A stretch of 43,746 nt of DNA from Escherichia phage NicoleGrasset_Bas72. How positions within the stretch are numbered: position 1 is the stretch's first letter; every line of letters starts with the position of its first letter. The stretch lies in the sequence record PQ850621.1; one strand, 5' to 3'. Positions 10,746 through 28,141 of the stretch are shown here, piece by piece. The notes under the pieces were generated by a model, which saw only the letters and a program-made list of their open reading frames with translations, made no database searches and was not told the DNA's origin. The position numbers were made by a program, and so were the translations under genes.

Positions 10746-11158
10746 TGGGCTACTTTGAGGACTTAACAAAAGCGTTCGATGTTCCGCTGGTAGCCTTCGG
10801 AACCGCCAACGGCATCAAGGTTGCGCTTGAAAACATCGACGCGCCGACGTCAACCGATACGCCGTATCTGGCGAGTTACATGCTACTGGCAGATACCGAG
10901 CAGGCGGATTTGTTCTTCACTGAGCAACGCTCTGGTATTTATCAGGTAGACATTAACTACGCATCGGTGAAAGGTAGCGCGCCAATCAATAAAATGGCAG
11001 ACTTACTTAACACGGCGTTTAAAGCAGGTAAGTCATTTTCGCGTAACGACATCTGCGCCGAGGTTCAATCGGTTAGCCTGGGGCCGCTGATTGTAGAAAA
11101 CGGATGGGCCAAACGACCATTGTCAATTAACTTTATTGCATTCACCAAGAGGCTGTGA
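10745..11158 (+). CDS. structural protein (tail region)
   Basis: 1-nt overlap with upstream stop; 137 aa. Confidence 0.5.
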   Translation: MGYFEDLTKAFDVPLVAFGTANGIKVALENIDAPTSTDTPYLASYMLLADTEQADLFFTEQRSGIYQVDINYASVKGSAPINKMADLLNTAFKAGKSFSRNDICAEVQSVSLGPLIVENGWAKRPLSINFIAFTKRL

Positions 11159-12327
11159 ATATGGCTACAACTCCTTTTAAGGGCGCGAATACCGCGCAAT
11201 TCTATGTGGCGGAAACTACCCCTGGCGTAACACCGACTAACCCGGTATGGTCGCCGTTGCGTAACACGGGCGGCGTTCCCGCTGTAACCCGCGATGCACT
11301 GACTTCCAACGAACTGGACGGCAGCCGTGAAACTACATCCATCCGAACCGGTAACAAGCAGGTTAGCGGGGAGTATGCCATCGAACTTAGCTCTCGTAGC
11401 CAGGATGATTTCCTTGCGGGAGCGATGACTTCTACGTGGCAAGCTGGGGTAGAGATTACTGGCGCCGAAATTACGGTCGCCCCAGCAGGTAAAACATTCA
11501 CCCGCGCTGCCGGTAGCTTCATTACTGACGGTGTAGAAGTTGGCGACCTTATTGCGTTCACCGACTTAACCGGCGACAACGCAAAACCGTTTATCGTGAC
11601 CGCGGTTTCCGCTCTGGTAGTTACGGGCGCAGGTATTCAGCACACGCTGACAGCAGAGACAGTAACCACTGACGCAAAAACTGGCGACAAGCTGGAAACC
11701 GGTAACGCGTGTAAGACGTTCTCCATCCTGACGTGGTTCAAGGGCCAGTGTGGTAACCCGGACGCGTACATGCTGACCAAAGGTGTGGAAATCTCTGGCT
11801 TTACCGTAGAGCAGGCGGTTAACGCCATGGTCACCGGCAGCTTCCCGTTCATCGGCCTGAGTCAGGAGATTCTTACCGCGCCGCCGTCTGGCTCTGATTT
11901 CTCTCAGGTTACGTTCACCGATGAGCCGTTCTCGTCGGTAGATGTGTCGGTGTTCGATGGCTCCACGCCGTTGCGTTGCGATACTCTCACCATCACCAAC
12001 GACAACGGAGCTTCCGCGCAGTTCGAACTCGGTAACAGTAGCGTGGCGTTCGTCGAACGTGGACGCGCAGCTAACACATTCTCTATCTCTGGCAAGCTGT
12101 ACGACATGGCGATGATTCAGAAGTTTATCAACGAGCAGCAGGTAGAGATTAACTCTATTCTGGCAGGGGTAAACGGGGCTATGTCTTTCAGTTTGAAACG
12201 CGCAGAGCTTACGGCGGTTACACCTGAGATTGGTGGGCCTGAGTCAATCACTCAGTCCATTGAAGGCCAGGCTACCGGCAATCAGTACCAGTCGTCTATC
12301 GTAATTCAACGTATCACCTACGCATAA
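11155..12327 (+). CDS. putative major tail protein
   Basis: 390 aa ORF upstream of chaperone/tape-measure genes; followed by strong terminator at 12329-12356. Confidence 0.45.
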   Translation: MNMATTPFKGANTAQFYVAETTPGVTPTNPVWSPLRNTGGVPAVTRDALTSNELDGSRETTSIRTGNKQVSGEYAIELSSRSQDDFLAGAMTSTWQAGVEITGAEITVAPAGKTFTRAAGSFITDGVEVGDLIAFTDLTGDNAKPFIVTAVSALVVTGAGIQHTLTAETVTTDAKTGDKLETGNACKTFSILTWFKGQCGNPDAYMLTKGVEISGFTVEQAVNAMVTGSFPFIGLSQEILTAPPSGSDFSQVTFTDEPFSSVDVSVFDGSTPLRCDTLTITNDNGASAQFELGNSSVAFVERGRAANTFSISGKLYDMAMIQKFINEQQVEINSILAGVNGAMSFSLKRAELTAVTPEIGGPESITQSIEGQATGNQYQSSIVIQRITYA

Positions 12328-12328
12328 A

Positions 12329-12356
12329 ACTAAGGCCCCTTTCGGGGCCTTTTTCT
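12329..12356. terminator. bidirectional rho-independent terminator
   Basis: AGGCCCC tttc GGGGCCT then TTTTT; convergent genes on both sides. Confidence 0.75.
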
Positions 12357-12586
12357 CACTCATCAATATTACTTCGATACTCCCGTAACTTCTCCAGACT
12401 TTCAATTGCTTCTGCTAAGTCGGTTCCGGTGTCCTTATGCCCGCGAAGACCCATGCACAATAACTTCTTCAATGCGTGCTGTAGTGCGGGGTCACGGATG
12501 TCGAAGGCACGGAGAACATCGTAAACGTCTACGGTCATAGTGCTGCCGTGAGTGTTTGTCATTGTTCGGTTGTATTTTGAAGTCAT
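12356..12586 (-). CDS. hypothetical protein (76 aa)
   Basis: Last gene of minus-strand cassette; start overlaps stop of 12583-13713. Confidence 0.45.
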   Translation of the reverse strand: MTSKYNRTMTNTHGSTMTVDVYDVLRAFDIRDPALQHALKKLLCMGLRGHKDTGTDLAEAIESLEKLREYRSNIDE

Positions 12587-13713
12587 CCCAGCATCTCCGG
12601 TGAAATAGTTAAACGTGCGACCTCGCCATATTCGGCGCTATAAGTAATTACATTTGCACTACGGCCTGACATCCACCCGCCGCGGGAGGCATAGGCGTCT
12701 TTAGCCGCTAAGGTGCGGTGTTGCTCAACAATCATGTTACGGCTTTCTACAATCTTCTGGTGGTGCAGGTGGCCTACGTGGGCGTAGCTATAGACACTCT
12801 CACCGAACGCTTTGCGGAATTTGGCAATCATAACCGGTTCGATAGCATCGAATCGCGCCTTATGCCCGTGGTGAAAGAACAACGTCGTTTTTCCGTGTTG
12901 CACCATCTTGTAAACATCCGGCGACGTATCGACAATCACTCGGCTGTCGTTCGAATATAAAACTGTGAACATTTCAGCCAGCCATACAGAGCCTACAGGG
13001 TCATGGTTCCCCTGTACGATAAGCAAGCGAACATTTTTATGTTTAACCAGTGCCATATCTACAACACGGCGTACCATACGAATCATGTAGCGGACGAGTT
13101 TCTGGTAGCGAGTGTCTGCGTCCAACACGTGACGCGACTCAGGTGTAACGGCATCCAGACTATCGAAGTGCGCGAAATCACCCAGCAGGTTAATAACTCC
13201 TGTTCCTGCATCCGGTGCTTTCTGAAACGCCGCGTCGAACCAACGAGAGAACAGGTCTTCCGCAATCTTTATATCCCAGTCGTCGCCGCTCTCGTCGGCC
13301 CAGGCAAGCATACCGAGATGGAAATCAGATACCGTGTAAAGATTGAGTAGCTTGTCGTCGCGTTTGGCTCGAGTCGCTTTAGCCGGCGCAACTGGCGTAA
13401 TCTCTGACTTCATGCCTTCAATCACGGCTTTCATCAACTCGACCTGACGTTCAGCGTCGGTGTCTGTCTTAACCCATTGCAACTTAGTATTGCCGAACTC
13501 GTCTACCAGAGACGACGTCCCTTTAATCTTGTAGCCGTCTGGGACAAGGTGGCTAACGTCACGCCCGTGGCCTACACCTTTCTTAGCCAGCTTCGCTTTA
13601 CGGATACGAATAACTCGGTCTGAGATGCCGTATTTACGGGCGATGTCTACATTCTTCATCCCGGCGTTCAATTCTTCCTGTAACTGTTCGTCGGTTATTT
13701 TCTTCTGGGCCAT
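12583..13713 (-). CDS. HTH domain fused to calcineurin-like metallophosphoesterase
   Basis: Metallophosphoesterase motifs visible in order: SDFHLG (D-x-H), GDFAHFD (GD), GNHD, HHGH, GHLHH; N-terminal HTH-like segment VDIARKYGISDRVIRIRKAKL. Confidence 0.7.
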   Translation of the reverse strand: MAQKKITDEQLQEELNAGMKNVDIARKYGISDRVIRIRKAKLAKKGVGHGRDVSHLVPDGYKIKGTSSLVDEFGNTKLQWVKTDTDAERQVELMKAVIEGMKSEITPVAPAKATRAKRDDKLLNLYTVSDFHLGMLAWADESGDDWDIKIAEDLFSRWFDAAFQKAPDAGTGVINLLGDFAHFDSLDAVTPESRHVLDADTRYQKLVRYMIRMVRRVVDMALVKHKNVRLLIVQGNHDPVGSVWLAEMFTVLYSNDSRVIVDTSPDVYKMVQHGKTTLFFHHGHKARFDAIEPVMIAKFRKAFGESVYSYAHVGHLHHQKIVESRNMIVEQHRTLAAKDAYASRGGWMSGRSANVITYSAEYGEVARLTISPEMLG

Positions 13714-13778
13714 GCTTACTTCCTCGTGTTTAGGATTTGTCCTATTTAACCACAGTGGATTCCTTTAAATAAAGGCAA

Positions 13779-14105
13779 CTATTTACTTTCTGCGCCTATC
13801 GCCCACCCTGTCATTACCATTTGCAGACGGGTGGCTGTCAGTAGGCTATAGAAAGCATCTCCGTTTTTCTCTACCGAACGTATCACTGTGTAGGTTACGG
13901 CCTGCGGGGGTAGGCCCGATTTACCAACCTCCACGGCGGCCTCACACTCGCGAACTGTAGAGTCCTTGAACGCCTTTACAATAGTAGGGTCGGCTTTATC
14001 AAGCACACCAGAAGTCATAAGAACAGATTCACTAAATACCTGTTCGCACGGGGCTCCAAAAGTAGCAAAAGACATAAACCCCAGAGCTAATACTAATTTA
14101 CGCAT
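13779..14105 (-). CDS. small secreted protein (signal peptide)
   Basis: N-terminus MRKLVLALGFMSFATFGA is a signal-peptide-like n/h/c region; first gene downstream of promoter 14134-14162. Confidence 0.55.
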   Translation of the reverse strand: MRKLVLALGFMSFATFGAPCEQVFSESVLMTSGVLDKADPTIVKAFKDSTVRECEAAVEVGKSGLPPQAVTYTVIRSVEKNGDAFYSLLTATRLQMVMTGWAIGAESK

Positions 14106-14133
14106 AATTATACCCTCAGTAAGTTACTGGTGA

Positions 14134-14162
14134 ATAGTACCCTATTATATTGGGGCGCGCAA
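14134..14162 (-). promoter_or_regulatory. promoter, TTGCGC-N17-TACTAT family
   Basis: On minus strand: TTGCGC, spacer gccccaatataataggg, TACTAT; drives cassette 13779-14105 onward. Confidence 0.55.
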
Positions 14163-14269
14163 GTAGTGTGTTAGAATAAGTTTGCGCCTAGTGTCGCACA
14201 CGAAAAGCGGGTGGTTCCCGCCTGGCGCATTAACCATAACCAGTAACCTCTTAACCAAAGGACTAAAGA

Positions 14270-24484: not shown

Positions 24485-25905
24485 TTCTTACCTCGTCTCT
24501 TCATGTAATTAAGCAACTCTTCCTGTACCGATTTTTTCTCGTCCGTACGCGCGGCAACAACCTCGTCCAGCGTGTCTTTAGCGACGATATGATAGAGGAA
24601 CACCGGGCGCTCGTGTCCCGCCTGTTTCTGGCGGACCGGGCCTATGCGCTCAACAACCTGTAAATAGTGCTCAAGGTTCCACCCTTGCGAAATAAACGCC
24701 AGATGATGTCCGCCGTCCTGTAAATTCAAACCATGACCAGCTGACGCAGGATGCACGCATAAGATCTCAATTTCACCACGGTTCCACGCTTCCATCTGCT
24801 TATTACCCTTAACTCCTTTGGCAAACGCCTGTGCCTGCGGGAATCGCTTAAGGATGCGCTCCAGTTCGTGCTTGAACTGATAAGCCACCAGTAACGGCGC
24901 ACCTTGTAGCTCCTCAACAATTGACTCGAGCGCATCCAGTTTCGTGTCGTGCACTTTCTCCCAGTCTTTGGTTGCTTCTCCGTCGTCACCCGTCACATAC
25001 ACAGCACCGGAAGCAATCTGCAAACACTTAGACGTCTTCGCTGCCGCGTTAGCCGCTTCAACTTCCCCGCTCTCCAGTTCCGCGAATAACTTTTCCTCCA
25101 TATCGATGTACGCCTGACGCGCTTTCTTCGGCAGGTCGATTTCAACAGGTACGATAACCGGCGCTTCGCATCCGAACCACTCAGCGGCGTCAATCGTGAG
25201 ACTGATGTCCTTCATCTTCTGGTGGATTTCAGTATCCGCACCCGGGCGGGCGTGGTATTCGCGCGCCATAGCAGATTTGCCTTTCTGCACCGAGTTAAAC
25301 CAGCGGTCGGTGAATGCCGTGTACGAAGAACCGAGGCGCTCGCCCGCGTCGATAAACCAGTTCTGTCCCCACAAGTCCTTGAGGCCGTTAGGCGATGGTG
25401 TACCTGTCAGGTTGATAAAACGCTTAACCTTTCCGAACGCCACTCTACTAAGCGCCTTCGCCCGCTTGCTGCCGCCTGAACGGCTGCGGAATGACTTCAG
25501 TTTCGTGCTTTCATCGGCAACGATAACGGTAAAAGGCCAGTCGTCTTTGCCGTAGTAGTCAATCAACCACTCTATTACCTCATAGTTCGTGCACACCACG
25601 TTAGCGTCCGACTCCAGCGCCGCGATGCGGCGCTTCTCTGAACCGGTCGCGTCTACGACACGCAGACATGGGAAATTCCACTTAGTTTGTTCCGCCGGCC
25701 ATGTGCCTGATGCAACGCGCAACGGGGCGAGGATTAACACGCGGTCCTCTTCTGTAAGCTGCCCGTTGCGGAACAGTCGGTTTAATGTCCACAGTACGCT
25801 GCCAGTCTTCCCGGCGCCCATGCTCGCCCAAATATTACAGCGATGGTGCCGCAACATGAACGAAGTCATTAGCTTCTGGTATTCGCGCCTTTGAAACTTA
25901 CTCAT
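24481..25905 (-). CDS. SNF2/DEAD-like helicase
   Basis: Walker A MGAGKTGS, DExx box VIVADESTKLK, helicase C-terminal region. Confidence 0.7.
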   Translation of the reverse strand: MSKFQRREYQKLMTSFMLRHHRCNIWASMGAGKTGSVLWTLNRLFRNGQLTEEDRVLILAPLRVASGTWPAEQTKWNFPCLRVVDATGSEKRRIAALESDANVVCTNYEVIEWLIDYYGKDDWPFTVIVADESTKLKSFRSRSGGSKRAKALSRVAFGKVKRFINLTGTPSPNGLKDLWGQNWFIDAGERLGSSYTAFTDRWFNSVQKGKSAMAREYHARPGADTEIHQKMKDISLTIDAAEWFGCEAPVIVPVEIDLPKKARQAYIDMEEKLFAELESGEVEAANAAAKTSKCLQIASGAVYVTGDDGEATKDWEKVHDTKLDALESIVEELQGAPLLVAYQFKHELERILKRFPQAQAFAKGVKGNKQMEAWNRGEIEILCVHPASAGHGLNLQDGGHHLAFISQGWNLEHYLQVVERIGPVRQKQAGHERPVFLYHIVAKDTLDEVVAARTDEKKSVQEELLNYMKRRGKK

Positions 25906-26692
25906 TTACGGCCCCCATGAACGCCTTTATAAATTCAGCGGCTACTTGCGGGACGATAGCATTGCCGTAACCGCGCAATCGTCCCACTCTGGCGGGTACC
26001 CCATTAGCCAGCGGGAATGTGCTGGGTTCAACTGGCCTGAATTTTCCATCCCGGCATCCGAGCCAGTCAGCATCTGACCAGAACCCGTTAGGCGGATTGG
26101 CTGTGTCAGAGATGCCTCTGTTTGCAGATTGTGGCCCCCGTTCCTGCCCTGATGGCCTGCTCCCGCCGAGTTGTTCGCACACGGTGTTGGCCAGTTGCTG
26201 CGCTCCGAAGAACAATCGATTCCTTTTGTGCGGTGCGCCGACGCTACAAGCTGGGAGTACGGCAAACCCGACGGCGTAGTCTTCTCTTTCCAGGTGAGTT
26301 TGTAAATCGCACATCCACGATTTTGCAATTGCTGCCGCAACCTGCTCCCCAAAGATGACTGGAGGGTGGCACTCGCTGATGAGGTCGAGGAGCACAGGTG
26401 CGAGGTGTCTCTGGTCGAACTGTCCGAGTTGCTTTCCTGCCGTGCTAAACGGTTGGCAAGGCGGACTTCCCGTCCATATAGGCGTATCTTCAGAAACTCC
26501 CGCAAGTCTGAGCGCGAGAGGCCAGCCGCCGATACCCGCGAAAAAATGACACTGGGTGAACCCGTCAAGGTCTTCTGGCTTAACTTCGGTAATGCTTCTT
26601 TCATCTACAACTCCAAAAGGTATGTGACCCTGTTTTATCAACTCACGCAGCCACGCGGCTGCGCCTTTATCCCATTCATTGTAATAGTTCAT
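25898..26692 (-). CDS. compact C5-cytosine DNA methyltransferase
   Basis: Motif I FFAGIGG, motif [11 protein letters not shown] (catalytic PCQ), motif VIII-like KRNRLFF, motif X-like [11 protein letters not shown]; only 264 aa, so the target recognition region is short. Confidence 0.7.
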
Positions 26693-27279: not shown

Positions 27280-27411
27280 TCATTCCAGCACCCACAGATA
27301 AATTGCGATGAACATGCCCAATATGGCAACCATCATGCCGTATTGACCCTCGTGACAGTAGACACCGGCAGCAAATCCCGCCAGTACCGCGATAATCAGT
27401 TTACTTGGCAT
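27280..27411 (-). CDS. small hydrophobic membrane peptide (43 aa), putative
   Basis: AAGGAG SD 9 nt upstream; MPSKLIIAVLAGFAAGVYCHEGQYGMMVAILGMFIAIYLWVLE; not in ORF track. Confidence 0.35.
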   Translation of the reverse strand: MPSKLIIAVLAGFAAGVYCHEGQYGMMVAILGMFIAIYLWVLE

Positions 27412-28096
27412 CTCTACATTCTCCTTCAGGCCACCTATTAGGAAAAGACGGTATATGTGAAACTTCTCTCGCCGCTTTTATTCTTTTAATGGCGGGACCT
27501 ATCTCCGTAACCATTTCAATGAATGTAAACCGGTGTCCTCTGGTAAGATTACATGTCTGACAACAAGAAACGCAGTTAGATACTATGTGCCCGCTTGTAT
27601 TATCTATGCGGTCTACCCCGACTTTTGTAGTGCTTCCGCAATAATGGCATGGCTGTGATATTAGTTTAATAACGCTTTCCAGTGTTAAATCGCAGATAAG
27701 CCCTTTTCCTGAATCTGCTCTTTTGTATCCTAACAAAAGCGCGTACGCCCGCGTCCTTTGGTCCTTATTCACCAGTTCCCTGCGTTGCTTGTTGAGACAC
27801 TCCCGGCAATCTTTCCTGATATGAGAGCCATTACTTTTATTTCCTTTCCTGAAGTTTTCCTCTGTTAAAGGTTTTACCTCCCCACACTTTCTGCATTTAA
27901 CAGGCTTCCCAGTGAAAACATACCAAGGGCTTTCTCGTCTGGATTTACCTTGTAATTTAAGTTTTTCGTCATACTTTTCCTTCCTGTTAGCATTTACACA
28001 CTCTTTACACCAGCGTTGCAGCCCGAGGCGCGTTGACTTTGAAAAATACTCTGTAGTCGCCGGTTTATCTTCGCCGCATCTTGAACACTTTTTCAT
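27401..28096 (-). CDS. HNH endonuclease with N-terminal zinc-binding Cys pairs
   Basis: CxxC pairs (CSRCG, CKEC, CRKCG) and HNH core HYCGSTTKVGVDRIDNTSGHIVSNCVSCCQTCN; ATG at 28096 with GGAG SD. Confidence 0.7.
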   Translation of the reverse strand: MKKCSRCGEDKPATTEYFSKSTRLGLQRWCKECVNANRKEKYDEKLKLQGKSRRESPWYVFTGKPVKCRKCGEVKPLTEENFRKGNKSNGSHIRKDCRECLNKQRRELVNKDQRTRAYALLLGYKRADSGKGLICDLTLESVIKLISQPCHYCGSTTKVGVDRIDNTSGHIVSNCVSCCQTCNLTRGHRFTFIEMVTEIGPAIKRIKAAREVSHIPSFPNRWPEGECRDAK

Positions 28097-28106
28097 TAAT
28101 AACTCC

Positions 28107-28141
28107 AAAAAAAAATACCGACATAGCCATTATATCGGTAT
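28107..28141 (-). terminator. rho-independent terminator (minus strand) between DNA polymerase and HNH genes
   Basis: On minus strand: stem ATACCGA/TCGGTAT with 13-nt loop, followed by a 9-nt U-run. Confidence 0.6.

Follow-up and report, generated by a model that had tools for sequence, protein, structure and literature searches.

A widespread phage protein joining a helix-turn-helix to a metallophosphoesterase core, a candidate stand-alone DNA nuclease in Escherichia phage NicoleGrasset_Bas72

Stand-alone phage metallophosphoesterase (MPE) nucleases with a DNA-binding N-terminus already have characterised examples. Host DNA degradation by phage T5 requires the A1 protein, a predicted metallophosphatase that is also sufficient for it; a resemblance of A1 to double-strand-break-repair and proofreading nucleases was reported (bioRxiv 10.64898/2026.04.02.716235). 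A1 carries its DNA-binding domain N-terminally and its endonuclease domain C-terminally (PMC12916289). Gp48 of mycobacteriophage A10ZJ24 (cluster A MPEs) is an MPE with DNase activity that functions in host-genome degradation and has a counter-defence role (PMC12287305). Breakdown of the host genome with reuse of the nucleotides is known from phages T1 and TLS as well; according to a 2024 reannotation, the responsible gene is still unidentified (PMC11447400), although T1 mutants with a defect in host-chromosome degradation exist (Roberts and Drexler 1981, cited there). Both encode a protein of the PHROG 704 family, which is very common and already catalogued, with names assigned by homology. 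Here we describe the member of this family that is encoded by Escherichia phage NicoleGrasset_Bas72 and consider what it may do.

The window, i.e. the whole stretch of DNA that was analysed (PQ850621.1, 43.7 kb), is an essentially complete Kagunavirus (Guernseyvirinae) genome. Over region 12300-14200 it shares 99.5% identity with Escherichia phages Bas75 and Bas70, and the gene order across the window was taken from the Bas75 annotation. The interval marked in the first-pass annotation corresponds to exactly one ORF with an ATG start (376 aa plus stop). The encoded protein (42.4 kDa, pI 8.9), called here the HTH-MPE protein, is identical (100%) to Bas75_0023, which is named 'DNA repair exonuclease' in Bas75. 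The gene lies in a short minus-strand island, across which the GC skew goes negative, flanked by the major tail gene (11155..12327, plus strand) and the tail assembly chaperone gene (14270.., plus strand). The features of the island are as follows.

12332..12351, no strand assigned: G+C-rich hairpin AAGGCCCC-GAAA-GGGGCCTT with T-runs on both strands
12356..12586, minus strand: 76-aa ORF downstream of the MPE gene, its ATG overlapping the MPE stop codon (ATGA)
12583..13713, minus strand: MPE gene
13779..14105, minus strand: 108-aa ORF upstream of the MPE gene, the first sizeable gene of the island
14107..14134, minus strand: best sigma-70-like site (TTCACC-16-TATAAT), ending one base before the ATG of the 108-aa ORF

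The 76-aa ORF is probably co-transcribed and translationally coupled with the MPE gene. Its PHROG matches (phrog_2452 and phrog_17613 'ATPase', profiles 235-250 positions long) cover no more than the C-terminal ~70 positions. In Jerseyvirus GRNsp6, this ORF is 91% identical, whereas the MPE is only 55% identical and an ORF of an HNH-endonuclease neighbour cluster lies between the two; the pair shows a mosaic pattern between that phage and the window. The 108-aa ORF has a hydrophobic, signal-peptide-like N-terminus (MRKLVLALGFMSFATFGAP) and phrog_14165 as its sole match, and searches of Pfam, NCBIfam and PADLOC returned nothing significant for it; its product may be an exported accessory protein encoded within the tail-gene block. 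Among the first nine phage loci compared, both neighbours were found in Guernseyvirinae only. The hairpin at the end of the island looks like a bidirectional terminator that would close both the island and the convergent major tail gene. The number of sigma-70-like sites is at chance level, and the single good one falls on the start codon of the 108-aa ORF. As this site ends one base before the ATG, it cannot yield an mRNA in which that codon is present; the alternatives are a later start of the ORF or a different location of the island's promoter.

Outside the island, a 235-aa Cys-rich ORF (27401..28108, minus strand) is of the endonuclease VII/HNH type (phrog_1035, E 4.5e-30), and the coordinate offsets relative to Bas75 imply ~770 extra bases at this place. 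The resolvase and DNA polymerase genes thus appear to be separated by an insertion of the homing-endonuclease type.

The HTH-MPE protein consists of the following parts, all encoded on the minus strand.

13582..13692, minus strand: N-terminal helix-turn-helix (HTH) of the LuxR/GerE/resolvase type, residues 8-44
13408..13533, minus strand: beta-hairpin, residues 61-85, and helix, residues 87-102, delimited by conservation (model pLDDT 80-93)
12586..13359, minus strand: calcineurin-like MPE core, residues 119-376, minimal, the chain ending with it
13312..13329, minus strand: motif I, SDFHLG, residues 129-134 (D130 and H132 invariant)
13162..13182, minus strand: motif II, GDFAHFD, residues 178-184 (G178 and D179 invariant; H182 and D184 at least 90% conserved)
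13000..13011, minus strand: motif III, GNHD, residues 235-238 (N236 and H237 invariant)
12862..12873, minus strand: motif IV, HHGH, residues 281-284 (H282 invariant)
12760..12774, minus strand: motif V, GHLHH, residues 314-318 (G314, H315 and H317 at least 90% conserved)

The N-terminal domain matches DNA-binding HTH domains (LuxR/GerE-type, sigma-70 region 4-like) both by profile and by fold, and residues 1-58 have a pI of 10.1. The linker that follows (residues 45-60) is modelled with lower confidence. The hairpin carries a family signature, KG-S-L...G...QWVK, in which G74 and W80 are at least 90% conserved; structure comparison of the N-terminal region gave no specific match past the HTH. 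Hairpin and helix are a family-specific module between the HTH and the enzyme. The full-length predicted model has a mean pLDDT of 94.2 and a pTM of 0.83, and its core shows the beta-sandwich fold of MPEs.

The first-pass annotation had claimed an HTH fused to a complete MPE active site with five calcineurin-like motifs in order, and both points are confirmed. The ordered five-motif pattern was reproduced by none of 20000 shuffles of the protein. Among 1.84 billion cluster representatives, 4567 relatives were found at E <= 0.001 (1129 at E <= 1e-30); conservation was read from an alignment of 131 of them (34-49% identity), of which 116 keep all ten residues checked. Because the motif residues are invariant or at least 90% conserved in these 131 relatives, the active site is complete and under strong selection.

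The placement within the superfamily is less direct. The Pfam models Metallophos and Metallophos_2 both stay below the gathering threshold (22.1 bits vs 27 and 17 bits vs 21.5); the family is too divergent for these models, so superfamily membership rests on motifs and fold. NCBIfam and PADLOC searches with the protein gave no meaningful match. Full-length agreement was obtained with PHROG 704 ('DNA repair exonuclease'; E 1.5e-162, residues 3-375 vs profile positions 1-389 of 390). Among PDB sequences, a profile of the MPE domain reached just Thermotoga maritima Mre11/SbcD and a Pseudomonas putida nuclease MPE (PDB 6NVO), both at E ~1. The alignments with these two have D-x-H-L-G and GD-F/L-L-H motifs in common; a resemblance of motif I to that of Mre11/SbcD had been noted at first pass. 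The GD-x-x-H form of motif II is common to GDFAHFD, GDLLH of T. maritima Mre11 and GDFLH of the P. putida enzyme. Note that comparison of the MPE-domain profile with single sequences of E. coli SbcD, E. coli CpdA and lambda NinI (hhalign, ~2% probability each) had no discriminating power. Structure comparison gave the following scores.

PolD DP1 proofreading exonuclease: 15.8
SbcD: 15.1
Mre11: 15.0 (other Mre11 and SbcD chains 12.5-13.5)
LpxH: 13.9
MJ0936: 13.5
GpdQ: 12.6
Rv0805: 11.9
nuclease MPE: 9.5
PP5 and calcineurin: 8.9-9.3

The nuclease branch of MPEs is favoured by these scores, by a modest margin and with only 184-191 residues of the 319-362-residue SbcD/Mre11 chains aligned. A firm placement among Ser/Thr protein phosphatases, named earlier as the finding that would speak against a nucleic-acid or nucleotide enzyme, was not obtained: PP5 and calcineurin lie at the bottom of the list, and the protein shows neither the PPP signature (GDxHG, GDxVDRG, GNHE) nor a closest fold among lambda NinI, PP5 and calcineurin. 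Of the two roles proposed at first pass, the nuclease has gained ground and the hydrolase of signalling nucleotides has become less likely. Such a phosphodiesterase would act on cyclic mono-, di- or oligonucleotides and disarm CBASS, Pycsar, type III CRISPR or Thoeris-type defence; we consider this role improbable. The first-pass annotation had pointed out that class III cyclic-nucleotide phosphodiesterases (the group of CpdA, Rv0805 and GpdQ) have the same fold. Nuclease structures score higher; a universally conserved DNA-binding HTH would have no obvious use in a small-molecule hydrolase; the gene belongs to the core of an entire phage family and occurs in many prophages, whereas known counter-defence genes are patchy; and the context is not defence-linked, the PADLOC search being empty as well.

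Among the closest enzymes, Mre11 and SbcD have in their nuclease domain the same type of motifs I and II as the HTH-MPE protein. However, they possess a C-terminal capping domain, while the HTH-MPE protein ends at residue 376 without one, lacks a region for binding Rad50/SbcC and carries an HTH in front; the sequence similarity is below threshold. The absence of a Rad50/SbcC partner nearby, noted at first pass, holds: the annotation of the near-identical Bas75 genome lists no such gene, and in the mapped loci it is not one of the recurrent neighbour families. A minimal core without capping domain is also the form of the P. putida nuclease MPE, with GDFLH as motif II, and this enzyme is cited in some database names of close relatives of the HTH-MPE protein. 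DP1, the small subunit of archaeal PolD and a proofreading 3'-5' exonuclease, has an OB fold and acts inside the polymerase complex; in contrast, the DNA polymerase ORF of the window, annotated in Bas75 just as 'DNA polymerase', has no link to the MPE gene.

T5 A1 (PHROG 1745) is analogous in architecture, with an N-terminal DNA-binding part and a C-terminal MPE. MPE motifs are present in A1 and seven relatives; those of A1 read GDIH, HD, SNHD, HGH and GHTH, so that motif II is HD rather than the GD of the HTH-MPE protein. Both proteins lack a Rad50 partner and both are encoded near genes of dNMP metabolism. A1 is, however, longer (556 aa), and its N-terminal region is unrelated. Indeed, A1 was considered as a homologue and rejected: comparison with A1 alone and with an 8-member A1 alignment (hhalign) gave 17.6-31% probability over 37-48 columns around motif III, in a search up to E 10 A1 hit PHROG 1745 alone and missed PHROG 704, a Pfam search of A1 was empty, and T5 A2, the DNA-binding partner of A1, gave no match. 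As the profile match is weak and the N-termini are unrelated, we treat A1 as an analogue and not as a relative. Gp48 of A10ZJ24 is, like the HTH-MPE protein, a stand-alone phage MPE without Rad50 partner; it appears to be short and without HTH (catalytic residues D10, D41 and H175) and belongs to a different subfamily.

The family itself is widely distributed. A tblastn search found it in 2042 phage records (in 1960 of them over at least 80% of the length), including Guernseyvirinae, with homologues in Dhillonvirus (73% identity), Jedunavirus (49%), Drexlerviridae including T1 and TLS (44% each), Vibrio siphoviruses (31%) and the N4-like roseophage Roseovarius Plymouth podovirus 1 (26%). PHROG 704 was reported as a core gene in Drexlerviridae. 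T1 ORF16 (CPTT1_064; annotated 'exonuclease', HHpred 99% to SbcD), TLS gp66 ('proof-reading exonuclease') and Bas75_0023 are full-length orthologues with the same HTH-hairpin-MPE architecture, and their names all come from homology searches. Our literature searches found no assay or escape mutant that maps to the PHROG 704 family. CRISPRi fitness data for phage PTXU04 were considered and proved uninformative (92 genes, a 2198-aa polyvalent protein, not Kagunavirus-like, and a paper without mention of a phosphoesterase).

Two divergent relatives differ in detail. The roseophage protein (orf28, L004:4950-6110) is annotated 'structural protein' and has GDKHH as motif V, not GHxHH; if virion proteomics is behind this label, phages of that lineage could package the enzyme and inject it. 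The relative in Alteromonas phage P24 (L008:3920-5020) carries a zinc-ribbon-like CxxC...CxxC N-terminus in place of the HTH; a Dmp-like phosphatase and a dNMP kinase are encoded after it, and an integrase upstream.

Furthermore, 58 loci were found with a 6-member alignment in a scan of one genome per bacterial species, mostly in Proteobacteria. Many of them are likely prophages, since endolysins (15 loci) and neighbour families of the size of terminases and portal proteins are found repeatedly. A 13-kb scaffold of Taishania pollutisoli (Bacteroidota; scaffold23, L011) contains Jerseyvirus-like tail genes in Jerseyvirus order and an MPE 55% identical to that of the window; it is probably phage contamination of the assembly and not a resident prophage.

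Clustering of the ORFs around the MPE gene revealed no consistently adjacent gene in the 60 mapped loci in which an MPE ORF is present. The neighbours that do recur encode endolysins, HNH endonucleases, dNMP kinase, a Dmp-like dNMP phosphatase, a protein similar to dATP/dGTP pyrophosphohydrolase and a peptidase similar to HslV. As no gene is consistently adjacent and the 76-aa and 108-aa neighbours were seen just in Guernseyvirinae among the nine phage loci compared, the HTH-MPE protein appears to act alone.

The neighbourhood bears on two further explanations. The MPE domain of bacterial Pnkp performs end-healing chemistry, and the HTH-MPE protein might likewise be a 2',3'-cyclic phosphodiesterase or 3'-phosphatase that, together with a polynucleotide kinase and a ligase, repairs tRNA or DNA cut by host defence nucleases. 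Consistent with this, polynucleotide kinase and dNMP kinase are the genes most often found directly after the MPE gene in Drexlerviridae without the SH3 gene (PMC13164509). On the other hand, neither polynucleotide kinase nor ligase is annotated in the near-identical Bas75 genome, the kinase family is absent from the annotated recurrent neighbours of the mapped loci, and an HTH suits duplex DNA more than tRNA, so that end healing seems to us slightly less probable even than hydrolysis of signalling nucleotides. The protein could also be a DNA-bound regulator with the HTH on a promoter and the MPE as sensor or modifier, or a phosphoprotein phosphatase like lambda NinI. The LuxR/sigma-70-region-4 type of its HTH and a weak match to a 'late transcriptional activator' PHROG (E 8.8e-4) would fit, as would the position of the gene, often directly upstream of lysis or terminase genes; lambda NinI is similarly placed ahead of late and lysis genes, directly before Q. 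We nevertheless rate regulation as the least probable of the functions considered.

The remaining alternative keeps the chemistry of a nuclease and changes its target. An Mre11-like 3'-5' exonuclease or an endonuclease for ssDNA or hairpins could trim ends, flaps or hairpins of the phage's own DNA in recombination-dependent replication or concatemer processing, complementing a 5'-3' exonuclease and an annealing protein. Repair and proofreading nucleases are indeed the closest folds, and in T1 and TLS the gene closes the replication operon of helicase, Holliday-junction resolvase and Dam, just ahead of the lysis cassette. The window encodes a PD-(D/E)XK exonuclease, an Enc34-type ssDNA-binding protein (Gp2.5-like in Bas75) and a resolvase (Bas75 annotation), and the frequency of the family in temperate prophages fits housekeeping DNA processing better than host destruction. 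However, in the window the gene is on the opposite strand within the tail-gene block, far from the replication module; across the 60 mapped MPE loci the gene has neither a conserved partner nor a constant association with recombination genes, and its neighbours often point to nucleotide salvage; and the capping domain and Rad50, which give Mre11 its end specificity, are both absent. Processing of phage DNA is the main rival role; it is rather unlikely in our judgement, if clearly less so than the three functions discussed above.

Taken together, we infer that DNA is the substrate and that the HTH-MPE protein is probably a DNA nuclease. A more specific proposal is a divalent-metal-dependent DNA nuclease from the Mre11/SbcD/PolD-DP1 branch that stands alone and is tethered by its HTH; for this proposal the chances appear about even. 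The basic LuxR/resolvase-type HTH and, after it, the family-specific hairpin and helix would keep the enzyme on DNA, and the minimal catalytic core would cut with neither a capping domain nor a Rad50/SbcC ATPase. As to the biological role of such a nuclease, degradation of the host chromosome is the leading candidate because of two precedents, T5 A1 and A10ZJ24 Gp48, and we put it forward tentatively. Breakdown of the chromosome would shut off the host and supply nucleotides, as with those two enzymes. PHROG 704 might then be, with the same reserve, a single-chain functional counterpart of T5 A1, possibly of A1 and A2 together, and the enzyme by which T1/TLS-like phages, Dhillonvirus and Guernseyvirinae destroy the host chromosome; HTH and hairpin would serve in targeting or in discrimination between host and phage DNA.

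Several observations speak against host-DNA degradation. Homology to T5 A1 is not detectable beyond the superfamily, and the family is frequent in prophages. A1 and DenB are triggers of the retron Eco2, and this retron gives no protection against Drexlerviridae or most Dhillonvirus (PMC12916289). Furthermore, the phage DNA would need a way to escape.

The window also encodes a 264-aa C-5 cytosine DNA methyltransferase (25898..26692, minus strand; Pfam DNA_methylase, E 5e-16; phrog_363, E 1.5e-82), which is short for its family and is overlapped by a 220-aa ORF in another frame. Should the phage make a nuclease that degrades DNA, this methyltransferase could be relevant to self-protection.

PHROG 704 is present in about 2000 sequenced phages, many therapy candidates among them, and has thousands of metagenomic relatives. 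T5 A1 and Gp48 show that stand-alone MPEs can degrade a host genome, and the HTH-MPE protein is a candidate for the enzyme that destroys host DNA in T1-like phages. If this is true, the family would represent a third lineage of Rad50-independent MPE nucleases serving host takeover; a possible trigger of nuclease-sensing defences would be identified, and the universal retention of the HTH would be explained.
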